Assembly (NCBI GenBank): GCA_036264035.1
Contig: DATART010000124.1
Coordinates: forward strand, 1-35,795
Length of the DNA: 35,795 bases
Direction: 5' to 3'
Source of the DNA: Thermoanaerobaculia bacterium
GTDB taxonomy: Bacteria; Acidobacteriota; Thermoanaerobaculia; Gp7-AA8
The notes beneath the pieces are model-generated. The model worked only from the letters and a program-made list of their open reading frames with translations, ran no database searches and was not told where the DNA came from. The translations under genes and the position numbers were made by a program. Numbering within the stretch: the first letter of the stretch is position 1; each line of letters starts with the position of its first letter. Below, piece by piece: positions 1 to 17,600 of this stretch.

Positions 1-1104
1 GAGGCCGGCGGCCTGGTCAAGAACATCTTCCTGAACCGCATTTTCGGAACGACTAACGGCAAGACGCTGACGAAGTCGTACGCGGTCTTCGGCGACGGCA
101 GCTACGCCGTGAACAGCAAGTTGAATCTCAACGGCGGACTGCGCCTCACCAGCGAGAAGAAGAACGGCATCGCCTTCAACGCCGGCTACACGAACGACAC
201 TTTCTCCGTCGTCAACGCCATCACCGCGAATTACAACAAGTCGAAGACCTTCTCCTCAGTCGCGCCGAAGATCGGACTCGACTACAAGGTCAGCGACAAG
301 ATCATGGCCTACGGTTCGCTGAGCCGCGGCTTCAAGAGCGGCGGCTACAACGTGCGCGCGCAGTCGACGGTCTTTCCGAAGTCGGCGGATCCGTTCAAGG
401 ATGAGGTGCTCGACGTCGGCGAGATCGGACTGAAGTCGAGCCTCGCGGACGGCCAGCTGACCCTCAACTCGGCGGTCTTCGATGGCAAGTACAAAGACAT
501 CCAGGTGTCGACCTTCACCGCGTACGACTCGAACGGCGACGGCGTCGAGGACGCGTTTTTCGGCAACTTTCTCAATGCCGGCAATGCCACCATGAGGGGC
601 GCCGAGGTTGAGTTCGACGCGGCGCCGCACAGCGTGAGCTGGTTCGCCTTGAACGGATACGTCAGCTATCTCGACCTCAAGCCGGACGGCTTCCTCGACG
701 CGAACCACGACGGATTCGTCGACACGCAGGTGATCACGAACGCGCCGCACTGGACCACCGGCCTGCACCTCAACTTCGACTTCCCGCTGATGAAGGGACT
801 GCTGACGGCCAGCGTTGGCGGCGCGTATCGCGACAACTCGGTCCTGACGAATGAGGGCGGCGCCTATCCGGGACGTCCCGGTCAGCCGCTGAAGCCGATC
901 ACGCAGAAGGCCTACACGATTTACGACGCGTGGGTGAGCTGGCTGTCGCCCGACGCGAAGTGGCGCCTCGGCATCAACGGCAAGAACCTGACGAACAAGG
1001 GCTATCTGACCAACGGCTACAACATCCCGTCGCTCGGCATCCTGACCGGTTCGTACGGCGCGCCGCGCACGGTGCTGGCCACCATCGAGTACCGTTTCTT
1101 CTAA
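1..1104 (+). CDS. TonB-dependent outer-membrane receptor, C-terminal beta-barrel portion (5' end outside window)
   Basis: Frame 1 is open from nt 1, with no stop before the listed GTG at 109. Beta-barrel-like sequence ending ...TVLATIEYRFF with terminal Phe, typical of TonB-dependent receptors. TAA at 1102-1104. Confidence 0.8.
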   Translation, partial: EAGGLVKNIFLNRIFGTTNGKTLTKSYAVFGDGSYAVNSKLNLNGGLRLTSEKKNGIAFNAGYTNDTFSVVNAITANYNKSKTFSSVAPKIGLDYKVSDKIMAYGSLSRGFKSGGYNVRAQSTVFPKSADPFKDEVLDVGEIGLKSSLADGQLTLNSAVFDGKYKDIQVSTFTAYDSNGDGVEDAFFGNFLNAGNATMRGAEVEFDAAPHSVSWFALNGYVSYLDLKPDGFLDANHDGFVDTQVITNAPHWTTGLHLNFDFPLMKGLLTASVGGAYRDNSVLTNEGGAYPGRPGQPLKPITQKAYTIYDAWVSWLSPDAKWRLGINGKNLTNKGYLTNGYNIPSLGILTGSYGAPRTVLATIEYRFF

Positions 1105-1125: not shown

Positions 1126-2415
1126 ATGACCGAAACTCCTGAGGAGCTCCGCTTCATGCCGGCCGTCGGGGCGGACAATCCCGCCGAGCCGGTCCCCGCG
1201 TCGTCGTGGGGCCTGCTTGCGTTTCTCACGGCGCTCAACATCCTCAACTTCGTCGACAGGATGCTGATCGCGAGCCTCGCGCCGCTTCTGATCAAAGACC
1301 TCGGATTGACGCGGGCGCAGATCGGATTGCTGGCCGGATTCGGGTTCGTTTTCTTCTACACATTCGTCGGTCTCTTCCTCGGTGTGGCCGCGGACCGCTT
1401 CAAACGCTTTCCGCTGATCGGAATCGGCCTCGCACTCTGGAGCGCGATGACGGCACTGTCGGGATGGGCGCGCAGCTTCCTCCAGCTTGCGCTTCCGCGC
1501 ATCTTCGTCGGCGTCGGCGAAGCGACGCTGACACCCGCGGCACTCTCGATGCTCGGTGACGCATTTCCGCGCCGCCGGCTCGGACTGGCGATCGGCGTCT
1601 ATTACTCCGGCATTCCGCTCGGCCTGGCGGTAGCGCTGATCTCGTCGAGCTTCATTGCGCCGCGCTTCGGCTGGCGCGTGGCGTTCTTCGCCCTCGGCAT
1701 CATCGGGCTGCTGGCGACGGTGCTGCTGTTCGTTTTGCGCGAGCCGGCGCGCCGCAAGTCCACCGCCGTGCGCGGCGTCCCCGAGCCACGCCCCTCGGTT
1801 CGCGAGCTCCTGCGCGATCTGGGCCGCGCGCTCGTCGAGCGTCCGGCGCTGGTTTTCGCGCTGGCCGGAGGTTCGCTGCTCTGCTACGGCTCTGGCGCGG
1901 CGCTCCACGGCGTGACGTGGCTCGTCGAAGAGCGCGGATTCCGCTACGCCGACGCCGCCTTCCGCTCCGGCGTCGTCGCCGTCTTCGCTGGTTTCCTCGG
2001 CAACCTCGCCGGCGGCGCGTTCAGCGACTTCTGCGCGAAGCGTTTCCCGGCCGGCCGGTTGTGGAGCCTGGCGATCATGACGGCGTTCTTCACCATTCCG
2101 GCGTGGCTGTTCTACTCAGTCGTCCCCGGCGGGCCGCTCTTCTACGTCTGCTGGTTCTTCACCAGCGCCGGCACGACGGCATGGTTCGGACCGCTCTTCT
2201 CAACGTTCCAGGAGCTTTCCCCGGTGCGCGCGCGATCGACGATGGTCGCCTTCGCGCTTCTGGTTCTCAACCTCCTCGGCGTCGGTCCGGGTCCGCTGAT
2301 CACCGGCATGATCGGCGATCGGAGTGGATTGAGCTTCGGATTGCTCGTGAGTCTCGTGATCACGGCGATGGCGATCATCCCGTTCTTCCTCGCGGCTCGC
2401 AAAGAGACCGTTTGA
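1126..2415 (+). CDS. MFS transporter
   Basis: 429 aa, about 12 hydrophobic spans. MFS-type motifs: LNFVDRMLIASLAPLL near the N-terminus and GVAADRFKRFPLI (loop 2-3 D-R-x-x-R-like). Starts 21 nt after the receptor gene. Confidence 0.8.
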   Translation: MTETPEELRFMPAVGADNPAEPVPASSWGLLAFLTALNILNFVDRMLIASLAPLLIKDLGLTRAQIGLLAGFGFVFFYTFVGLFLGVAADRFKRFPLIGIGLALWSAMTALSGWARSFLQLALPRIFVGVGEATLTPAALSMLGDAFPRRRLGLAIGVYYSGIPLGLAVALISSSFIAPRFGWRVAFFALGIIGLLATVLLFVLREPARRKSTAVRGVPEPRPSVRELLRDLGRALVERPALVFALAGGSLLCYGSGAALHGVTWLVEERGFRYADAAFRSGVVAVFAGFLGNLAGGAFSDFCAKRFPAGRLWSLAIMTAFFTIPAWLFYSVVPGGPLFYVCWFFTSAGTTAWFGPLFSTFQELSPVRARSTMVAFALLVLNLLGVGPGPLITGMIGDRSGLSFGLLVSLVITAMAIIPFFLAARKETV

Positions 2416-2423
2416 ACCGCTTT

Positions 2424-3068
2424 TCAGTTCTGCTTCAACATCCCATGCCGCAATATCCGCGAGATCTCGCCGATCGCGTCCTCGGTGCCCATGCCGAAGT
2501 GGTCTTTGACGCCGAAGAGGATCTCGACGGAGAAGTAGTTCATGAAAATGCGCGTGGCCAGCATCACCGCGGAGATCGGTGAGAGTCCGTTGGCGAGTTT
2601 CGACTGGAGTTCCCCTTCCATTCCGTGCTTCTTGAAAAACGCATCGAAGCGGACCGCCATGTCCTCGTAAAACTTGCGGACGTGCGCGCCCTCGAACTCG
2701 ACGACGTCGACGTAGATGAGTGCCACGTATTCGCGGTATTCGCGGACCATGTCGCGCGCGGCCAGGCCGAGGCTTTCCAGGTTTTCGGGGAACGTGCCTT
2801 CGGAGAGGGCGCGGTTGAAGGGGAACTGCGGCTGCGACATCAAAAGAAAGTAGCGGTCGAGCAGCGAGCGGAAGATCGTCTCCTTGTCAGGGAAGTGGTG
2901 ATAGACATTGCCCTTCGAGACGCCGGCGTCGGCGGCGATGTCCTGCACGCTCGTGGCGCCGTAGCCGCGGTGGGAGAAGAGTTTCAGCGCGCTTTCGAGG
3001 ATCAGCTGGCGCGACTTTTCGGAGCGCTCCTCCTGCGTCGATGCTTTCAGGCGAGTTGCTTTCGTAAC
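2424..3068 (-). CDS. TetR/AcrR-family transcriptional regulator (5' boundary unresolved)
   Basis: N-terminal HTH signature ...SRQLILESALKLFSHRGYGATSVQDIAADAGVSKGNVYHHFPDKE. Stop at 2424-2426. No ATG/GTG/TTG lies between the in-frame ATG at 3230 and the HTH, so the start is uncertain (see findings). Confidence 0.75.
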   Translation of the reverse strand, partial: VTKATRLKASTQEERSEKSRQLILESALKLFSHRGYGATSVQDIAADAGVSKGNVYHHFPDKETIFRSLLDRYFLLMSQPQFPFNRALSEGTFPENLESLGLAARDMVREYREYVALIYVDVVEFEGAHVRKFYEDMAVRFDAFFKKHGMEGELQSKLANGLSPISAVMLATRIFMNYFSVEILFGVKDHFGMGTEDAIGEISRILRHGMLKQN

Positions 3069-4480
3069 TCCTCCTTCAGGACCTTGCCGTACGGCGTGCG
3101 CGGCAGCGCGCCGACAAAGATGAACCTGCGCGGGATTTTCAGCCGCGAAAGGCGCGCGCCAAGAAACGCGGTGAGATCGGAGTCGTCGACATCGTGCGCG
3201 ACGACGAACGCAGTTCCCACTTCTCCCCATTTTTCGTCGGCGACCGCGATGACGGCCGCGTCGGAGACATGCGGATGCTGCAGCAACTCCGCTTCGACTT
3301 CGGCCGGATAGACGTTGACGCCGCCGCTGATGAACATTTCCTTGCGGCGGCCAACGATGAAGAAGGATCCGCCGGCATCGCGGCGAGCGACGTCTCCGGT
3401 CCTGAACCAACCTTCAACGTACGCTTCCGCCGTTGCTTCGGGATTGTTCCAGTAGCCGCTGCTTACGTGCGGACCGCGGAGCCATATCTCGCCAATATCG
3501 GCATCGCGGCCGGCGTCATCGACGAGACGGACATCGGTAAACATCATCGGCCGGCCGATCGAGCCGGGCCTGGCGCGCGCATCCTCGATCGTCATCGTGA
3601 AGCAGTTCACTCCAACCTCGGTCAGACCGTAACCTTGTTTGAGAGTAACACCGCGTCGCTGGTACGCATCGATGAGAAACGCGGGCAGCGGCGCGCCGCC
3701 GCTGATGAACCAACGCACGCGGCTCAGATCGACGGTGGCGAATTGCGGAGCGTCGTGGAGCATCTTCCAGATCGTCGGCACGCCCATCACGACCGTGCAG
3801 CGTTCGCGTTCGATCGTCTCCCAAACCTCGGCCGCGTCGAAGCCCCGGTGAAGGACGATCGTGCCGCCGATGAGGAAGAGCGGGATCAGAAAGACCGCGA
3901 CGCCGCCGGCGTGATAAAGCGGCGTGAAGATCGGCGCGACGTCATCCTCGCGCAGCCCCCAATTCGTGATCGTGCTGTAGCCGTTCCAGAGGAGCTGCCG
4001 ATGCGGAATCATCACGCCCTTCGGTTTGCCGGTCGTGCCGCTGGTGTAGAGCAGGCAGGCGGTCGATTCGGGATCGTGAACGACCATGGGAAATGCGCGT
4101 GATGTTTGCGGGATATCGATTTTCCTCAGCGGTACACCGTCCACGTCCGGAGTGCTGCCGTCGCGAAGCAGAGTCTTCATCCCGCAGTCGGCGGCGATGA
4201 TCGATAACTCATGCGCGGTCGCGCGCGTGGAAAGCGGCACGACGATGACCCCGGCTTTGAGCGCGCCGAAGAAGACCGCGATGAAATCGATGCTGTTCTG
4301 TGCGAGGAGACCGGCTCGATCGCCGGGCCCGAGACCGGCGTCGAGAAGCATCGCGGCCGCACGATTCGCGCGCTCGTTGATCTCCGCGTACGTCAGGCGT
4401 TCTCCGGTTTCGACGGAGATCAGTGCAACGCGATCGGGCGTGATGCGCGCGCGCTCAGCTAGGAGGTCGCCTGCAAACAT
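3047..4480 (-). CDS. AMP-dependent acyl-CoA synthetase/ligase (ANL superfamily)
   Basis: Motifs LLYTSGTTGKPKGVMIPH, GYGLTE, FRTGDVARRD..FFIVGRRKEMFISGGVNVYPAEVE and C-terminal PRTPYGKV. Start taken at ATG 4480 (MFAGDLLAERARITPDRVALI...). The upstream part of ORF 3047..4741 is Arg-rich noise. Confidence 0.85.
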   Translation of the reverse strand: MFAGDLLAERARITPDRVALISVETGERLTYAEINERANRAAAMLLDAGLGPGDRAGLLAQNSIDFIAVFFGALKAGVIVVPLSTRATAHELSIIAADCGMKTLLRDGSTPDVDGVPLRKIDIPQTSRAFPMVVHDPESTACLLYTSGTTGKPKGVMIPHRQLLWNGYSTITNWGLREDDVAPIFTPLYHAGGVAVFLIPLFLIGGTIVLHRGFDAAEVWETIERERCTVVMGVPTIWKMLHDAPQFATVDLSRVRWFISGGAPLPAFLIDAYQRRGVTLKQGYGLTEVGVNCFTMTIEDARARPGSIGRPMMFTDVRLVDDAGRDADIGEIWLRGPHVSSGYWNNPEATAEAYVEGWFRTGDVARRDAGGSFFIVGRRKEMFISGGVNVYPAEVEAELLQHPHVSDAAVIAVADEKWGEVGTAFVVAHDVDDSDLTAFLGARLSRLKIPRRFIFVGALPRTPYGKVLKEELRKQLA

Positions 4481-5214
4481 GCGATGAATCGCTCCGGCTG
4501 CTGCGCGTGCGGAATGTGCGCGGCATCGTCGATGATGCAGAGCCGCGACCCGGCGATTCCGGCGTGCAGTTGCTCGATGTAGGCGCGGGTGACGACGCCA
4601 TCGTTCGCGCCCCAGATAACGGTCGTCGGGACGCGGAGGGTGCCGAGGCGGTCGTCGATGAAGTACGCCATCATCCCGCCCGCGATCAGACGAAGCATAG
4701 GCGAGTCGCTGCTGCGCGTGATGAGCGCGTCGATTGCCCAATCCGGAAACTGCGCGTTGACGCCGTGTACCGCCTGAAGAATCGGCACCGCTTCGTCGCG
4801 ATTCGACGCGACCAGCGAAACGCCTAACGGGATTGCCAGGCCGCCGCCGGACTCGAGGAAGAGCTCAGCGACTCGCGAGGGCTGCGCGAGCGCGTAGAGG
4901 ATGCTGATCCACGCGCCCATCGAGTTGCCGGCCAGGGTCGCGCGCCCACTCCCTTCGGCATCCAGCACGGCCGCGAGACGGTCGACGAGGTACTGCATGG
5001 TCAGCGCGCCGGTCTGCGGTTCGCTTTCTCCGTGGCCGGCGAGATCGGGAATGATGAGGCGGTACGACTTCATCAGCGATGGCGCGACCAGCGACCACGT
5101 ACCGGCGTGGTCGTTGACGCCGTGGATCAGAGCGAGGGTCCGTTCGCCCTCGCCGCCCGTCCAATAGACCGCCCCGTCGAGCGATTTTCGCGTCAGGCCG
5201 GCCAGCGTCAGCAT
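4459..5214 (-). CDS. alpha/beta-fold hydrolase (Ser nucleophile)
   Basis: HG oxyanion motif (LALIHGVNDHAG), nucleophile elbow GNSMGA, and later GANDGVV and AAHIPHAQQP. Start taken at ATG 5214. The 3' end overlaps the ligase start by 22 nt. Confidence 0.75.
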   Translation of the reverse strand: MLTLAGLTRKSLDGAVYWTGGEGERTLALIHGVNDHAGTWSLVAPSLMKSYRLIIPDLAGHGESEPQTGALTMQYLVDRLAAVLDAEGSGRATLAGNSMGAWISILYALAQPSRVAELFLESGGGLAIPLGVSLVASNRDEAVPILQAVHGVNAQFPDWAIDALITRSSDSPMLRLIAGGMMAYFIDDRLGTLRVPTTVIWGANDGVVTRAYIEQLHAGIAGSRLCIIDDAAHIPHAQQPERFIACLQATS

Positions 5215-5254
5215 CGATCGCGTTTGGGCGATGAAGTCGGCGTGCGAGGTGATT

Positions 5255-6280
5255 TCAGGCAAAGAGCCGTCCTTGATCGAGCGGCATGCGCAAGGCCACC
5301 GCGGCCTGGTTGTAGCCGACGCCGGATCCGACCAGCACGACGAGGTGACCGGCCTTGATCCTGCCGCCGCGAAGCGCATCATCGAGCGCCATTGGGATGC
5401 AGGCCGAACCGGTGTAGCCGGCGTGCTCCATGATCGTGTGGGTCTTCGTCATCGGCATGCCGAGGTCGTTCATCACGATCTCGATGGTCGGCTTGCGGAC
5501 TTGCGAGAAGATGATCATGTCGATATCGGTCAGCGCGAAGCCGCCGTTTTCTGCGAGACGGCGGACCAGTTTCGGCCAGCCGGCGTCGTTGATTTCGGGC
5601 GGATAGCGCTCGACCATCCGCACCGAGGTGCGGCCGGCCTGGACCGACTCCGCGGTGGCCGGTTCGACTGTGCCGCCCGACTCGATCAGCCAGTTGCGAT
5701 GGTAAGAGCCGTCGGCGGCAAAGGCCGAGGCGATGTATCCCGGCGCGTCGCTGCGATCGAGCACCACGGCGCCTGCGCCGTCGCCATAGAAAAAGACGAA
5801 CGGATCGTCGGCGCGGGCGAGCTTGCGCATCAGATAGACGGCCACCACGAGGACGGTTCTCAGCGACGGATTGCTGGTCATCAAGCCCGCCGCCGCCGAA
5901 AGCGCGGTTGGAAATGATGCGCAAGCACAGCCGACGTCGAACGTGCCGGCGTTGACCGCGCCGAGCTTCGACTGCAGCACGACCGAGGTTGCGGGCGTGA
6001 TGTAGTCGGGAGAGTCGGTGCCGAGAATGATCAGGTCGAGCTCTTCGGGCGATTTGCCCGCGCGGGAGAGCGCCTGTTGCGCCGCCTGCAGCGCGAGATC
6101 TGAGGCCGCCCATCCGTCCGGCGCCTGCCAGCGTTTGAGGATGCCGCTGGCTTTCTCCATCTTGTTCACGAACTCCGGCGCGATCTCCGCGAATCGTGCG
6201 CGCAAATCGTCGTTGGTGACTTCGATCTCGGGCAGGTAGCTCCCCGTACTGACGATGTTCGCGTACGCCGGCACGCTCAT
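5255..6280 (-). CDS. KASIII (FabH)-like thiolase-fold enzyme, non-canonical active site
   Basis: Collinear with FabH: N-terminal IVSTGSYLPE, FDVGCACASF (active-site Cys region), FGDGAG-like YGDGAGAVVL, C-terminal GRIKAGHLVVLVGSGVGY. The FabH HQAN and GNTSAAS motifs read SQVR and GYTGSAC here. The ATG overlaps the SDR stop (ATGA at 6277-6280). Confidence 0.8.
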   Translation of the reverse strand: MSVPAYANIVSTGSYLPEIEVTNDDLRARFAEIAPEFVNKMEKASGILKRWQAPDGWAASDLALQAAQQALSRAGKSPEELDLIILGTDSPDYITPATSVVLQSKLGAVNAGTFDVGCACASFPTALSAAAGLMTSNPSLRTVLVVAVYLMRKLARADDPFVFFYGDGAGAVVLDRSDAPGYIASAFAADGSYHRNWLIESGGTVEPATAESVQAGRTSVRMVERYPPEINDAGWPKLVRRLAENGGFALTDIDMIIFSQVRKPTIEIVMNDLGMPMTKTHTIMEHAGYTGSACIPMALDDALRGGRIKAGHLVVLVGSGVGYNQAAVALRMPLDQGRLFA

Positions 6281-7002
6281 GTCCCCAGCACCAGTCCCCC
6301 ATCAACCGACAGCACCGTGCCGCTGATGAATCGGGCCGCGTCCGAGGCGAGCCAGACGTAGGCGTTGGCGACGTCCGCCGGATCGCCGAGCCGGTCCAGC
6401 GGTGTTTTCGCCAGCATTACACCGAGCACTTTCTGCGGCATGGCCTGGACCATCTCCGTGGCGATGAATCCCGGCGCGACGGCGTTGACGCGAATTCCGA
6501 ATCGCCCGAGCTCGCGCGCCCACGTCTGCGTGAAGCTGATCACGCCGGCCTTCGTGGCCGCGTAGTTGGTCTGCCCGAAGTTGCCGTAGAGGCCGACGAT
6601 GGACGACGCGTTCAGGATGACGCCTGACGATTGCCGGATCAAGTGGGGCACAACGGCGCGCGTGCAGAGGAAAACGCCTTTGAGGTTGACGTTGACGACG
6701 GCGTCGAATGTCGCGTCGTCCATCGTCGAGAGGACTTCGCCGTCCTTCCACTTCACGAGCTGAGCGTCGCGAACGATTCCGGCGTTGTTGACCAGGACAT
6801 CGACCCGTCCATGCTCGGCGATGACCGCCGCCGTGGCCGCTTCGACCGACTCTTTGCTGGTGACATCGACCTTTGGTTCCGAGGTGACATCCCATACGAC
6901 GACCTTCGCTCCCTCGGCGCGAAATGCCTCGGCGGAAGCGAGTCCGATTCCAGCGCCGCCGCCGGTAATGACGACGACTTTGTCCTTTAGATTGAGGTTC
7001 AT
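6277..7002 (-). CDS. classical short-chain dehydrogenase/reductase (FabG-like)
   Basis: TGGGAGIGLASA (TGxxxGxG), NNAG, NASS...YAATKAG (Ser / YxxxK). 241 aa. Confidence 0.85.
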   Translation of the reverse strand: MNLNLKDKVVVITGGGAGIGLASAEAFRAEGAKVVVWDVTSEPKVDVTSKESVEAATAAVIAEHGRVDVLVNNAGIVRDAQLVKWKDGEVLSTMDDATFDAVVNVNLKGVFLCTRAVVPHLIRQSSGVILNASSIVGLYGNFGQTNYAATKAGVISFTQTWARELGRFGIRVNAVAPGFIATEMVQAMPQKVLGVMLAKTPLDRLGDPADVANAYVWLASDAARFISGTVLSVDGGLVLGT

Positions 7003-7035
7003 CGTTGAATGGTACGTTCGATGAGAGCAGCGTCT

Positions 7036-7059
7036 GTCGGCAACTTGCCGACTGGTCGG
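7036..7059. promoter_or_regulatory. Perfect palindrome GTCGGCAA-c-TTGCCGAC (7036-7052) overlapping CCGAC-tg-GTCGG (7048-7059); candidate operator
   Basis: Read directly. Lies 34-57 nt upstream of the SDR start codon (7002, minus strand), in the divergent region between the operon and the protease gene. The operon ends with a TetR gene. Confidence 0.4.
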
Positions 7060-7103
7060 TTTGTTTTGCGGTCAATGTAAAGCGGAGTGCGCTGGTTGTC
7101 AAC

Positions 7104-8963
7104 GTGACCCCCGTTACGTCCCCATCCGCGACGAGAACCCATCCTCGTAGCTTGTCCTCGATCAGAGTGTCGCTGGCCGCGTTCGTTCTCGCCATCGCCA
7201 CGCCGTCATTCGCCATCACGTACGTCGTCCCGCCGGATCGGTTCGAGATCGACCGGGCGGCGGCGATTGTGGTCGGACGCATTCTCGGCGCGCATGTGGA
7301 ACGGTCGCGGTTCGGGATCGAGACGGTGACGACGGTCGCGATCGACGAGGCAATCAAGGGAAATCCCGGCACCGTCGCCAACGTACATACGCCCGGCGGA
7401 ACGCTCGGCGCGGAGACGCGCGTAGTTCCCGGCGCTCCGACATTTGTCGACGGCGAGCGTGTTCTTCTTTTTCTCTCCCGGCGCGGCGATGGCGGCTACG
7501 TCATCACCGACCTCGGACTCGGAACCTTTCGTCTCGTGCGCGATGAGTTTGGCCGCGAACTCGCCGTCCGCAACGACGCGGACATCGAAGGGTGGGACGC
7601 CGGCGGCAACGTGCATGTCGAGCAGCAGCGATCCGCGGATCGATTCCTCGACTACATTCGCGGCGTTCTTCGCGGCGAAACGATTGCCGAGGATTACTTC
7701 GTTGCGAGGATGACGAACGTGAAGGCGGAATCGCTGCACCCGATCGCGGCCGCATCATTCACCGCCACTTCCTACATGCTCACCTACGGCTCCGGCCTCG
7801 GCACGCGCTGGAACGTCTTTCCGAGCGCCGTGAGCTGGAACCGTGGCAACTCCGAAACGGGTCCGCTCGGAAACGGCGCCGCCGAGATCAGCGCCGCCTT
7901 CAGCACCTGGAACGCCGGCGGAACGAACTACGTCCTCTCCAGCGCCAACGCGAATCCGAATGGATTCCTCGACGCCACCGACGGCACGAACAACATTGTC
8001 TTCGAAAAGAACCTCACCTCGGCCGGCCTGCAGCCATTCAGCTGTTCCTCCGGCGGCGCGCTCGGCATCGCCGGCATGACGCACGCGGGCTTCGGAGGCG
8101 GGACACACGTCTTCCGCGGCGAGACGTTCGCCACAACGCTCGAAGCCGACGTCAGCATGAATCAGGGTGTGGGCACCTGCACGCCAGGACAGGTTCCGCA
8201 GGAGCTTTTCAAAAGCGCGATCACGCACGAGTTCGGCCACACGCTTGGATTCCGCCACTCCGATCAGACCCGCAACCTGAGCGCGTCGTGCGCCGGCGAT
8301 CCGACGCTCGACTGCACCAGCTCCGCGATCATGAATCACATCCTCGTCTCAGGGCTCAACGGCCAGCTCCTGGCCTGGGACAACACCGCGCTCAACGCCG
8401 TCTACGGAGCCGCACCGGCCTGCACCCCGCCGTCGATCACGCTGCAACCGTTCGGCGCGTCGATCAACGCCGGCAACTCTGTGCAACTTTCCGTCGCCGC
8501 CACCGGCACGCCTCCACTGTCGTATCAATGGTTCGTCGGATTCACAGGCGATACATCAACGCCGGTGGTTAATGGGACGACGTCGACGATCGTCGTGGCG
8601 CCGGCAATCACGACGTCGTATTGGGTTCGCGTCACGGGCGCCTGCGCACCGGTCGCGAACAGCAACGCGGCAACAATCGTCGTGACGGTATGCGTGCCGC
8701 CGCAAATTCTGAACACGCTGAAGGATCAGACGGTCCTCGCAGGAACCGTCGTCTCGCTCACCGTGAATGTCATCGGCACAAATCCGGCCGTCTCCTGGAT
8801 GGCGAACGGAAACCTGATCGGCTTCGGTCCGACCCTGACCACAACCCCGCTGACGCAGACAACGCAATTCCGCGCGCATGCGGTCAACGCCTGCGGCTCC
8901 GCCGACAGCAACCTCGTCACGATCACCGTGACTCCGCCGCGGCGGCGGCCGGTACTGCACTAA
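7104..8963 (+). CDS. secreted zinc metalloprotease (metzincin, matrixin/serralysin-like) with two C-terminal Ig-like repeats
   Basis: HEFGHTLGFRHSD (HExxHxxGxxH) followed by a SSAIMNH Met-turn candidate. Signal-like SSIRVSLAAFVLAIATPSFA. Two ~85-aa repeats, each with the pattern G..V.L.V...G..P..(YQ)W. Start ambiguous: GTG 7104 or TTG 7152. TTG 7005 is unlikely because it sits 3 nt from the divergent SDR start. Confidence 0.7.
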   Translation: MTPVTSPSATRTHPRSLSSIRVSLAAFVLAIATPSFAITYVVPPDRFEIDRAAAIVVGRILGAHVERSRFGIETVTTVAIDEAIKGNPGTVANVHTPGGTLGAETRVVPGAPTFVDGERVLLFLSRRGDGGYVITDLGLGTFRLVRDEFGRELAVRNDADIEGWDAGGNVHVEQQRSADRFLDYIRGVLRGETIAEDYFVARMTNVKAESLHPIAAASFTATSYMLTYGSGLGTRWNVFPSAVSWNRGNSETGPLGNGAAEISAAFSTWNAGGTNYVLSSANANPNGFLDATDGTNNIVFEKNLTSAGLQPFSCSSGGALGIAGMTHAGFGGGTHVFRGETFATTLEADVSMNQGVGTCTPGQVPQELFKSAITHEFGHTLGFRHSDQTRNLSASCAGDPTLDCTSSAIMNHILVSGLNGQLLAWDNTALNAVYGAAPACTPPSITLQPFGASINAGNSVQLSVAATGTPPLSYQWFVGFTGDTSTPVVNGTTSTIVVAPAITTSYWVRVTGACAPVANSNAATIVVTVCVPPQILNTLKDQTVLAGTVVSLTVNVIGTNPAVSWMANGNLIGFGPTLTTTPLTQTTQFRAHAVNACGSADSNLVTITVTPPRRRPVLH

Positions 8964-14623: not shown

Positions 14624-17600
14624 CCATCGAGAACCGAAGTGCCGCGTGTCTCGATGCAGAAGTCCTCGCTGCCTTTGCCGACGGAAAGTTGACGAGGAGC
14701 GAAATGCCGGCGGTGCTGGCGCACCTGCGCGACTGCCCGAACTGTATGAGCGCATTGGAAATCGCGAACGAGATTGCCGGCGCAAAGGAGGCGCATTCCT
14801 TTCGCTTGTGGTGGGCCGCGGCCGCGGCGGTAATCGCGATCGCGATCGTCGTCGCCATTCCGCTGCTGCGCCGCGACGAATCGCCGACCGCGAAGCTCAG
14901 CAGGTACGCGCCGGCTGATGCGCGAACGGTCGAGACGCGGCTCGCGGCATTTCCGTGGGCGCCATACCGCGGGCCGCTCCGCGCCGGCGACGCTGCAGAA
15001 GACGCCCGGCGCCTGCAACTGGCCGGTGTTGCCGGCGATGCCGTCGCGCGCGCGAACACCGATCCCGCCGCCGAAGCGCAGCGGACGGCCGGCGTCGCTC
15101 TTCTGCTGGTCGGCGAACCCGAGAACGCGCTGAAGCGATTGCGACTCGCTGCCGAGCGAGCCCCCAACGATGCCGCGACGTGGTCCGACCTCGCTGCGGC
15201 TCTCGACGCCGCGGCCGTGCGCCTGGAGCGGAAGTCGCTACATACCGAGGCGTTGGCGGCGGCCGATCACGCGCTCGCGGTGGATGCATCGCATCCGGCC
15301 GCGCTCTTCAATCGCGCGTTGATCCTCGAGCACCTCGGCCTCGGCGGCGAGGCGCGCAAGGCATGGGATCGCTATCTCGCCGTCGATCCGTCGTCCCACT
15401 GGGCCGATGAGGCACGGCAGCACCTCCGCCGCTTGCCGGTGTCGACGGGCGAGGCGCGCTTCCGCGCCGCGCAGACCGACCTCGCGACCGTGGCAACCAT
15501 GGTGCCTTCGTTTCCGCAACTGAGCCGCGCGTACGCGGAAGGCATCTACCTCGGGCGCTGGGGCGCATCGGGCGACGTCGCGAATCTCGATGCAGCTCGC
15601 GCCATCGGCGACGCGCTGGTCCGATCGTCGGGTGAATCGTTGCTGCGCGACAGCGTGCGGGTCATCGACGCGTCGGCGGGCGAACGGCGGAAGCAACTCG
15701 CCGCAGCGCATGCGCTCTACGACCGCGCGCGCGCCACACTCTGGCATCGCCAGTCGCAGTCCGCGGAGCGCGAGCTTCGCGACGCTGCGGCCGACTTCGA
15801 GCGCGTTGGCAGTCCCATGTCGCTCGTAGCGCGGTACTACGCGGCCTGCGCGCGGTTCGAGAACGACGACATCGCGGGTTCCCGCGCGGAGCTCGAGCGC
15901 CTGCTCGCCGAGAGCAACGCACATCCGGAGTTCGTCGCTTTGCAGGCGCAGATCCACTGGCAGTTGGCGACCGTGGCCTTTTCCGCGGCCGACTGGGTCT
16001 CGGCTCTGGAGCCATTGAGCGAGGCCGAGCAACGTTTCCGCCGTCTCGGCGAGCGCGCCAACCTCGCCTTCATCAAGGGCATGCAGTCGACCGCGCTGGG
16101 CTGTCTCGGCCGGCCGGATGAAGCGTGGGCGGCCCGCATCGAAGCCTTTCGCGGCCTTGACTGGGAGGGGTATGCCGATCGTCTGCCGGTCACGCTCGGC
16201 GGCGCTGCGCGCATGGAATTGCACGCCGGACGGCTCGACACCGCCCAGTCGTTTCTGCACCTCGAAGTTAATGCTCTGCGTAACCTCCAAGACCATGCGC
16301 AATTGACCAACGCGCTCGTCCGCGAGACCTTGCTGCAGATCGAGCGCGGCGATCGCGTTGCTGCGTCGGAAGCGGAGCGCCAGGCCATGATCGCCGCGAG
16401 GTCACTCTCCGGACCGGCGCGCGGCATCGCCTTCGCCGATACATCGCTCGCCGCCGGCGCGGTCGCGCTGCCGGACAATGCCAGAGCGGCGCGCGAAGCG
16501 CTGACGTCCGCTATCGATTTCTACCGCGCCTCGGGGCGAATGATCTTCCTCCCGCAGGCGCATCTGCTTCGCGCCCGGGCCTCGCTGCGCGTTGCCGACC
16601 GCGCCGCCGCTCTGCGCGATCTCGACGAAGGGCTGGAGGTCCTCGACCGTCATGGCCGCCGCCTTGCCGGCCCGCTCGTCGGGACGGACATTCTCGACGC
16701 CGGCGCGGCGCTCGGGCAGGAAGCGATCCGGCTGCGCCTTGACATGGGCGACGTCGCGGGCGCGTTTCGCGAAGGCGAACGGCGCAATCTCCGTGTTGAT
16801 GGATCTGCGGATTCCCCTGTCCTTCTCGACGTCCTGCAGCACCGCCTGGCCGGTTCGTCCTCGGCCGTGATGATGCTGATGGTGGTCCCCGGCGAGGCCA
16901 TGGCGATCACCGTCACTGCAACGACGATCGCCACAGCTCGCGCGCCGCTCGACGAGCAGGCGCTCGATGCGCGGATTCGTGGCGCCGTTGAAGGTAAAAA
17001 CGACGATGCGGCCGGGCTGTACGACGCTCTCGTCCGCCCGTCGGAACCGGTCCTCGCGGGCATCGAACGGCTGATCGTCGTAGCCGATCCTCGATTGCGC
17101 AACGTTCCATATGCGGCACTTTACGATCGGATGAAAAAGCGTTACCTCATCGAAGCGGTCGCGGTTGCCGTCGCGCAGAGCGCCTCATCGCTGCGCGAGC
17201 AGCACGCGGCAGCCCCGCGGCTGGCCGTCGCTGTGGCGTTGCCGTCGGGTACGTTGGCGCCGCTGCCCGGCGCACGGCGGGAGCTCGACGATTTGACGTC
17301 GCTGTATCCGAAGCTCGTCGTCATCGAGCCCGCGTTCGCGACGCTGCCGGCGTTCGCGGCCGCCGCCGCGCACGCCGGAGTGGTCCACATTGCCGGACAC
17401 ACGTCGCACGTACCCGGCATGAGCGAGCCGGCGCTTCCTTTCGCACAGCACAGCGCGACGTGGAGAGATCTGTGCGGCCTTCGATTCGAAGCCGCCTCGG
17501 TGGTAATCCTCTCCGCCTGCGAGACGCTCAGCCGCACCTCCACGGGCAGTCTCGGAAGCGGCGTGCTCGCCGCGGGAGCGGGAGACGTGATCGGCACGCT

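Follow-up and report, generated by a model that had tools for sequence, protein, structure and literature searches.

A putative import-and-degrade locus of Acidobacteriota built around an uncharacterised class of KAS III-fold enzymes

Introduction

The fold of 3-oxoacyl-acyl carrier protein (ACP) synthase III (KAS III) is among the best-studied enzyme scaffolds and is a drug target. In the olefin and beta-lactone systems (OleABCD; Lst and Nlt) a thiolase-fold enzyme, an alpha/beta-hydrolase, a ligase of the ANL superfamily and a short-chain dehydrogenase/reductase (SDR) are encoded in one operon; OleB is a haloalkane-dehalogenase-like alpha/beta-hydrolase with an Asp nucleophile, and OleD is an extended SDR of about 330 aa and of the 3beta-hydroxysteroid dehydrogenase (3beta-HSD) type. 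In this study we analyzed a stretch of 35,795 nucleotides from a Thermoanaerobaculia bacterium of the phylum Acidobacteriota (assembly GCA_036264035.1, contig DATART010000124.1, positions 1 to 35,795; hereafter the window), in which enzymes of the same four superfamilies are encoded together with a TetR-family regulator, a TonB-dependent receptor and a transporter of the major facilitator superfamily (MFS). We consider it probable, with some reserve, that this locus is a TetR-controlled, substrate-inducible module for import and degradation, arranged around an uncharacterised class of KAS III-fold enzymes.

Parallels to parts of the locus are found in other described systems. Archaea have a complex of a thiolase, 3-hydroxy-3-methylglutaryl-coenzyme A (HMG-CoA) synthase and a DUF35 protein, and PhlACB combines a KAS III-like protein with an SCP-x-type thiolase and a DUF35 protein. 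In Sphingobium SYK-6, a TonB-dependent receptor and an MFS transporter (DdvT and DdvK) take up lignin dimers and are linked to a TetR-controlled catabolic locus. The Acidobacteriota themselves are a dominant soil phylum.

Results

Gene content of the operon

Genes were called by combining the list of open reading frames (ORFs) with a survey of start codons and a Pfam search; the related loci used for comparison bear the labels L001, L002 and so on. A first-pass annotation, made from the sequence of the window, had described five co-directional minus-strand genes, encoding an SDR, a KAS III-fold enzyme (KAS), an alpha/beta-hydrolase (ABH), an ANL ligase and TetR, and the ORF list and the Pfam matches agree on this set. 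The junctions are also as described there, i.e. an ATGA overlap (6277-6280) between the SDR and KAS genes, a 40-nt gap (5215-5254) in front of the hydrolase gene and a 22-nt overlap (4459-4480) between the hydrolase and ligase genes. None of the enzymes of the operon reaches a curated NCBIfam cut-off, and the NCBI models therefore do not recognise FabG, FabH, MenE, FadD or a named hydrolase among them. The operon and its vicinity lack an ACP gene, and genes of nonribosomal peptide synthetases (NRPS) or of NRPS-independent siderophore (NIS) synthetases are likewise absent from the locus.

A KAS III-fold enzyme without the FabH His/Asn pair

The product of the KAS gene (5255-6280, minus strand; Pfam ACP_syn_III and ACP_syn_III_C) has the FabH fold in its AF2 model (pLDDT 94.7; Foldseek TM 0.88/0.93 to 4DFE), and FabH is also its best sequence match among solved structures (8.6e-47). 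Compared with the FabH proteins of E. coli (1HN9) and B. xenovorans (4DFE), the fold, the nucleophilic Cys (Cys120, aligned with FabH Cys112) and the Gly-rich oxyanion loop are retained. In contrast, the His/Asn pair is missing, as had been noticed in the first-pass annotation: HMMER alignment to solved FabH structures and MAFFT alignment revealed that Ser259 replaces His244 and Tyr289 replaces Asn274. The docking residues of FabH (W32, R36, R151 and R249) are also lost; in the window protein they are replaced by K, A, D and P, and among its closest relatives these positions are variable. The protein scores 190 bits with the NCBIfam FabH model NF006829, for which the cut-off is 249, and remains below all other NCBIfam cut-offs.

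The roles of FabH Cys112, His244, Asn274 and Gly306 have been described (PMC10054515): His244 and Asn274 stabilise the enolate of decarboxylated malonyl-ACP, and the transfer of the acyl group from acyl-CoA to Cys needs only Cys112 and backbone amides. Since the His/Asn pair is absent, the FabH reaction is not expected of the window protein and its clade; judging from the residues present, decarboxylation of malonyl-ACP cannot be expected, and the residues with which FabH docks ACP and CoA are lost.

The KAS protein has thousands of relatives (12,567 matches in an exhaustive HMMER search). Identity is 72% or higher in each of the 120 best clusters, and the few named ones carry the label of metagenome-assembled genomes (MAGs) of Thermoanaerobaculia or Acidobacteria. 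For the clade analysis we used the 96 full-length proteins (300-500 aa) among the 150 best-scoring representatives, within which the proteins with Thr/Ser and Tyr at the two positions form one monophyletic clade with a support of 1.0 in a tree of 97 representatives. Its signature is Asp-Cys-Thr/Ser-Tyr-Cys (hereafter DCTYC), and the window protein carries all five residues (D89, C120, S259, Y289, C294). Thr/Ser at 259 and Tyr at 289 hold across the whole clade; Asp89, Asn231, Tyr289, Gly291, Cys294 and Ser319 are invariant (Asp89, Asn231, Cys294 and Ser319 setting it apart from FabH), and Pro227 and Trp235 are nearly so.

Comparison of sequences and of structures (Foldseek) found no DCTYC member among solved structures, and a full-text literature search yielded no relevant paper on Cys-only or Thr/Tyr KAS III proteins or on such a gene cluster. 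By these comparisons DCTYC is a large uncharacterised clade, no solved or characterised member having been found.

Asp89 lies in a T-D-S/T loop, which we take to occupy the place of the catalytic Glu (T-E-S) of HMG-CoA synthase. Unlike that enzyme, the DCTYC protein lacks the His of the Glu-Cys-His set, and its likeness to the thiolase/HMG-CoA synthase/DUF35 complexes is one of gene clustering. When we looked for an HMG-CoA synthase comparator among the relatives, PF01154 gave weak matches only, and in the reverse comparison with HMG-CoA synthase models only the N-terminal half of the window protein matched (2.2e-15, far below the cut-off).

Two observations concern the immediate surroundings of DCTYC genes elsewhere. 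On a short metagenome contig (L038, 327-2319) a second KAS III-like gene (330 aa) lies directly upstream of the DCTYC-clade gene (329 aa), so that heterodimers are conceivable in some lineages, the second gene being assigned by KAS III likeness only. In a Myxococcota MAG (L007, 756-5262) a DCTYC gene whose product is 64% identical to that of the window and a second KAS III-like gene, which is divergent (398 aa), are arranged head to head, and NfeD-like and flotillin-like genes follow; this context is atypical, with no adjacent SDR, hydrolase or importer gene.

The partner enzymes

The SDR (6277-7002, minus strand; Pfam adh_short_C2, 4.7e-58) is a short enzyme of the FabG type, as had been proposed: it has 241 aa and only the adh_short, adh_short_C2 and KR Pfam matches. 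Its closest solved relative is PDB 4NBW (72% identity over 198 residues, 6.2e-91), which we take to be the NADH-dependent FabG of Plesiocystis pacifica, one of the homologues of Javidpour et al. 2014; it was reportedly studied there as an NADH-dependent reductase and as a tool enzyme for fatty-acid production. With 4NBW the SDR shares the insertion after the NNAG motif and an Asp in beta2 (Asp38, at the end of the strand VVVWDV), and this Asp is also present in the partner SDRs of five other loci besides the window. A further strong match is 2ET6, a (3R)-hydroxyacyl-CoA dehydrogenase. PMC11467476 cites the study of Javidpour et al. for the rule by which D36, and not S36, marks the use of NADH. 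By its sequence the SDR is classed as an NAD(H)-type, FabG-like 3-hydroxy/3-oxoacyl dehydrogenase.

The best PDB matches of the ligase (3047-4480, minus strand; Pfam AMP-binding, 5.3e-93, and AMP-binding_C) are a feruloyl/fatty-acyl-CoA synthetase (8WEV, 1.4e-100) and FadD13 (3R44, 6.8e-99). Its sequence holds a GRRKE stretch and a C-terminal PYGK, presumably the ANL hinge motif and the catalytic-Lys motif, respectively. The ligase is thus classed by its matches as an ANL acyl-CoA synthetase of the FadD13 / feruloyl-CoA-synthetase type.

In the case of the hydrolase (4459-5214, minus strand; Pfam Abhydrolase_1, 2.5e-21) the translation confirmed that the nucleophile elbow, GNSMGA, carries Ser and not Asp, and the best solved relatives are Ser esterases. 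The best PDB match is the esterase 5EGN (1e-19), followed by weaker matches to meta-cleavage product (MCP) C-C hydrolases; the NCBIfam haloalkane dehalogenase model is matched at 2.1e-7 only. These matches class it as a Ser-nucleophile esterase, thioesterase or C-C hydrolase.

Distribution and conservation

The KAS gene is present in 22 of the 41 genomes of the same family, always as a single copy, and in 17 of the 151 genomes of the phylum, and is therefore an accessory gene. We rejected it as the housekeeping FabH of the host: the genome has other FabH-like loci, two in number (contigs C366 and C107), the gene is accessory, and its score lies below the FabH cut-off. With these two loci in the genome and the KAS gene in only 22 of the 41 family genomes, the operon does not belong to housekeeping fatty-acid synthesis.

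The best of the other FabH-like loci (contig C366, 8406-9510) is probably the housekeeping fabH. Its alignment to E. coli FabH falls into two pieces that overlap, which points to a frameshift or to an error in the assembly of this MAG (71% complete).

Whether the five-gene arrangement is conserved had been left to comparison with related genomes. We found the order SDR-KAS-ABH-ANL(-TetR) again in at least 11 further loci from several acidobacterial families; the loci that share it are L002-L006, L009-L015, L019, L031, L032 and L040-L046. Across them the KAS proteins are 67-91% identical, with identities falling to 40-84% for the ligase and to 32-88% for the hydrolase, which is the fastest-evolving member of the operon and has been lost in the L001 lineage.

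Linkage to importer genes

Two plus-strand genes of the window, encoding the C-terminal 367 aa of a TonB-dependent receptor (1..1104; Pfam TonB_dep_Rec_b-barrel, 2.2e-30) and an MFS inner-membrane transporter (1126..2415; Pfam MFS_1, 3.5e-43), converge on the operon, and the same convergent arrangement was found in L004 and L006. The receptor orthologues are 72-94% identical and adjoin the enzyme genes in each arrangement, independent rearrangements included. In L001 the receptor gene lies directly upstream on the same strand, and a gene of a second receptor type takes this position in L031, L032, L041-L043 and L046. An MFS gene follows the receptor gene in L003, L004, L006 and L040, and in the last of these SDR, KAS, ABH, ANL, TetR, receptor and MFS genes follow one another in this order, all on one strand. 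The best NCBIfam match of the MFS protein is the aromatic-acid:H+ symporter type (TIGR00895, 3.6e-27, below the curated cut-off). By description, the locus resembles that of DdvT/DdvK in having a TonB receptor, an aromatic-acid-type MFS transporter, CoA-dependent enzymes and a small-molecule repressor, and differs from it in the set of enzymes.

More distant loci of the clade are joined to other transport genes. One has the order MarR-receptor-SDR-KAS-SSF symporter-ABH, the receptor being TonB-dependent, and another the order ABH-KAS-SDR-Liv-type ATP-binding cassette (ABC) importer-TetR. The Holophagae-type loci (two complete genomes and one draft) read TetR-KAS-thiolase-small protein-SDR-porin-like protein-binding protein. 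On a plasmid of the Bacteroidota strain Chondrinema litorale WSW3-B12 (NZ_CP111049, OQ292_RS29205-29235) we found SDR-KAS-SSF-ANL-ABH-hypothetical-TonB receptor, and on a plasmid of the Chloroflexota strain ZRK35 (CP069395, JR338_12550-12600) SDR-KAS-acetyl-CoA-type CoA-transferase-small protein-thiolase-DUF35-ABH-ABC importer; both plasmid-borne KAS proteins carry the DCTYC active-site set. Binding-protein ABC systems and TonB receptors work inward only, and SSF symporters are importers.

The thiolase encoded in these loci matches NF053570 (M. thermolithotrophicus-type thiolase; 3.5e-81). Compared with the archaeal thiolase/HMG-CoA synthase/DUF35 complex and PhlACB, the DCTYC gene of ZRK35 clusters with genes for both an archaeal-type thiolase and DUF35, the Holophagae-type loci have the thiolase and no DUF35, and the window locus has neither. 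By analogy, this clustering would fit a DCTYC enzyme that acts on the substrate or the product of a thiolase. The exchange of the ligase for a CoA-transferase and the added thiolase and DUF35 genes are signatures of CoA-thioester catabolism.

Small proteins are encoded beside the thiolase in both settings (105 aa in the Holophagae-type locus L025, 7348-7665; 102 aa in ZRK35, L053, 11349-11657). The 105-aa protein was considered as a DUF35 protein and rejected, having no Pfam match and no CxxC motifs; the ZRK35 protein has a weak DUF5640 match and is not detectably similar to it. On the Chondrinema litorale plasmid (L052, 6521-7783) the SDR-DCTYC string is directly preceded by hxlB and hxlA, genes of formaldehyde assimilation by the ribulose-monophosphate route, which may be coincidental or may hint at a methoxylated substrate.

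The regulator gene, its operator and the promoter

The TetR gene (2424 to about 3050, minus strand; Pfam TetR_N, PF00440, 5.8e-19) has no ATG, GTG or TTG codon in its frame between 3230 and 2948. A CTG at 3050-3048 overlaps the stop codon of the ligase gene (CTGA, 3047-3050). At the homologous position there is GTGA in L001 and again CTGA in four relatives of approximately 90% identity (L002-L005). From these sequences the likeliest start is the CTG, with translation coupled to that of the ligase by termination-reinitiation. The N-terminus of the regulator matches ScbR-type (autoregulator-binding) proteins at 3.2e-15, below the NCBIfam cut-off.

Ahead of the SDR gene we found a sigma-70-type promoter (TTGACA-N17-TACATT; 7102-7074, minus strand), which agrees with the consensus at 10 of 12 positions, is the only promoter-like site in 2300-7250 and is conserved in L002, L004 and L005. 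Directly after it lies a probable TetR operator, predicted from the sequence AAACAAACCGACCAGTCGGCAAGTT (7042-7066, minus strand) with its palindromic core CCGACcaGTCGG (7048-7059) and A/T-rich flanks, and conserved upstream of the SDR gene in L002, L004, L005 and L006. An 8+1+8 palindrome noted earlier (GTCGGCAAcTTGCCGAC, 7036-7052) turned out to be genome-specific, its right arm differing in L002, L004 and L005; the conserved element is instead the overlapping CCGACcaGTCGG core with its flanks (7048-7059 and 7042-7066).

A recurring core, CCGACnnGTCGG, is also present upstream of the receptor genes of L001, L003, L004, L040 and L041-L043. L003 and L004 are relatives of approximately 90% identity that share the arrangement of the window, and in L040 the copy lies between the TetR and receptor genes. 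The copy at the receptor promoter of L004 is at 15530-15560. The core pattern occurs 10 times in the 3.26-Mb genome of the host, with ~0.06 occurrences expected per 20 kb. A scan of this genome (71% complete as assembled) for further operator copies found the extended flanks at the copy at 7048 only; the 5' end of the window's receptor gene is lost at the contig edge, and the contig that carries this end is missing from the assembly. Since the operator stands at both the SDR and the receptor promoters and is rare in the genome, the enzymes and the importer appear, on this sequence evidence, to form one TetR regulon.

Discussion

A model of the pathway

The arrangement of the locus can be read as follows. 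The TetR repressor would bind the palindromic operator just downstream of the sigma-70-type promoter of the SDR gene, and the second copy of the operator, seen in close relatives ahead of the receptor-MFS pair, would ensure the joint induction of uptake and enzymes. A carboxylic acid, or its ester or lactone, would enter through the receptor and the MFS transporter, and the Ser hydrolase would open or trim the ester. The FadD13-like ligase (in other lineages a CoA-transferase) would then form the CoA thioester, and the NAD-type SDR may oxidise the 3-hydroxyacyl thioester at C3 to the 3-oxo form, probably with (R)-specificity. Finally, the DCTYC enzyme might act through an acyl-Cys120 intermediate in a non-decarboxylative step on the 3-oxo or 3-hydroxy compound. 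This step could be a retro-Claisen cleavage of the thiolase kind, or an oxo-ester could donate its acyl group in a CoA-dependent transfer; Asp89 might act as the acid/base, with hydrogen bonds donated by Ser259 and Tyr289. The candidates for the substrate are oligomers of (R)-3-hydroxyalkanoates, other esters of 3-hydroxy acids, beta-diketone or polyketo acids and phenylpropanoid acids.

The first-pass annotation had suggested a distinct, possibly undescribed small-molecule lipid pathway, neither housekeeping fatty-acid synthesis nor canonical Ole. The locus is indeed distinct and undescribed, and it is neither of these two systems. The biosynthetic framing, in contrast, did not hold: three of the features of Ole are missing, the SDRs carry the Asp of the NAD type, there is no ACP gene, and the enzyme genes are linked to those of importers and, in the lineage of the window, share the operator with the receptor genes. 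We infer that the direction is more likely catabolic than biosynthetic. The operon looks catabolic, yet it matches no known catabolic operon.

The chemistry of the central enzyme is a different matter, and any specific reaction assigned to it is doubtful at best. We propose tentatively, as something possible rather than probable, that the DCTYC proteins are a new catalytic type within the thiolase superfamily, a FabH scaffold without ACP docking and without the His/Asn pair, and that, together with their invariable NAD-type SDR partner, they mark a catabolic route that is coupled to importers and has so far gone unrecognised. With Cys120, Asp89 and the Ser/Thr-Tyr pair as hydrogen-bond donors, this type would form or cleave C-C bonds in a non-decarboxylative manner, or carry out the CoA thiolysis of an oxo-ester, with (R)-3-hydroxy-acid esters and beta-polyketo acids as candidate substrates. 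The route would extend over Acidobacteriota, Bacteroidota and Chloroflexota, and the enzyme occurs in a Myxococcota genome as well.

Several points weigh against an import-and-degrade module. The best NCBIfam match of the receptor is a siderophore-receptor subfamily (TIGR01783, 7.2e-47, below the cut-off), and the MFS protein weakly matches the exporter MxcK (NCBIfam, 1.2e-11); these weak matches would be compatible with a cycle in which a product is made, exported and reimported. Neither an enoyl-CoA hydratase nor an acyl-CoA dehydrogenase gene is present in the locus, which consequently does not encode ordinary beta-oxidation of unfunctionalised acids. The Holophagae-type and ZRK35 loci have a thiolase of their own, next to which the DCTYC enzyme would be superfluous in such a role. 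NADH-type FabG-like enzymes can also run reductively. The placement of D89, S259, Y289 and C294 near C120 is read from the alignment to FabH and may differ in the protein.

Alternative explanations

The opposite direction would be the synthesis of a secreted, lipid-like signal or of a metallophore, in which the ligase activates a fatty acid, KAS transfers or condenses the acyl group, the SDR reduces the product with NADH, the hydrolase releases the product, the MFS protein exports it and the receptor retrieves the product or its metal complex. The enzyme classes would suit the building of a 3-hydroxy or 3-oxo acyl product, the receptor and MFS matches (TIGR01783, 7.2e-47; MxcK) and the ScbR-type N-terminus of the regulator (3.2e-15) point the same way, and 4NBW was reportedly studied as an NADH-dependent reductase. 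However, all of these NCBIfam matches are far below their cut-offs, other lineages have binding-protein ABC systems and SSF symporters, which are generally importers, and the CoA-transferase exchange and the added thiolase and DUF35 are hallmarks of degradation. The KAS protein, moreover, lacks the residues of decarboxylative condensation, and ACP, NRPS and NIS genes are missing from the locus; we regard synthesis of a secreted product as unlikely. An intermediate possibility is that exogenous (3-hydroxy) fatty acids are scavenged into the cell's own lipids, the ligase forming the acyl-CoA, KAS serving as an acyl-CoA:ACP or acyl-CoA:lipid transacylase that feeds fatty-acid, lipid A or phospholipid synthesis, with adjustment of the 3-position by the SDR. 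In FabH the acyl group indeed passes from acyl-CoA to Cys without need of His or Asn (PMC10054515), the closest solved relatives of KAS are true FabH proteins and the ligase is FadD13-like. Such a transacylase role is nevertheless hard to reconcile with the loss of conservation of W32, R36, R151 and R249 in the clade and with the absence of an ACP gene nearby; the SDR is of the NAD type, and the thiolase, DUF35 and CoA-transferase of other lineages point to breakdown over incorporation, which makes scavenging quite improbable.

A divergent Ole or Lst pathway, in which KAS would perform a head-to-head condensation, the SDR would reduce the 2-alkyl-3-ketoacid, the ANL enzyme would close the beta-lactone and the hydrolase would decarboxylate it to the olefin, is suggested by the four superfamilies occurring together in one operon, and the first-pass annotation had pointed to the same enzyme classes. 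This likeness stands at the level of superfamilies and fails at the level of families in three of four tests. KAS was rejected as an OleA, having Ser and Tyr in place of His244 and Asn274 where OleA keeps a Cys-His-Asn set plus a Glu base; the OleA chains (3ROW, 3S21, 4KTI and others) match it partially, at ~1e-16 against about 9e-47 for FabH. The hydrolase was rejected as an OleB, having the Ser elbow G-N-S-M-G and Ser esterases as relatives rather than an Asp nucleophile, and the SDR as an OleD, being a classical enzyme of 241 aa with no 3beta-HSD domain. The fourth comparison, which covered Pfam, NCBIfam and PDB matches, showed an ANL fold, no OleC model among the best 25 NCBIfam matches, and feruloyl-CoA synthetase (8WEV) and FadD13 as the nearest relatives of the ligase. 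The locus further differs from OleABCD, Lst and Nlt in gene order, in its linkage to, and apparent co-regulation with, importers and in its TetR regulator, and we find an Ole-type pathway hardly credible.

Implications

Annotation pipelines label every DCTYC member as ketoacyl-ACP synthase III although the FabH His/Asn pair is missing, and such labels mislead reconstructions of fatty-acid synthesis in Acidobacteriota. If the import-and-degrade reading holds and the enzyme cleaves C-C or ester bonds without His and without decarboxylation, this would be a new reaction type in the thiolase superfamily, and bacteria of soil and sea would have in it a widespread route to a class of acids or esters. 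The predicted regulon is compact and testable, consisting of a single operator and its repressor, two importers and the four enzymes. Chondrinema litorale WSW3-B12 and Chloroflexota ZRK35, two named strains in which the locus is plasmid-borne, give experimental access to it.

On the other side of the promoter region, a divergent gene for a metzincin/Ig-repeat protease (7005-8963) shares this region with the operon in the window and in L005. Its distance from the SDR gene is approximately 3.5 kb in L004 and more than 6 kb in L002. We rejected it as a member of the system on account of this varying placement among close relatives, and by its position it probably lies outside the regulon.

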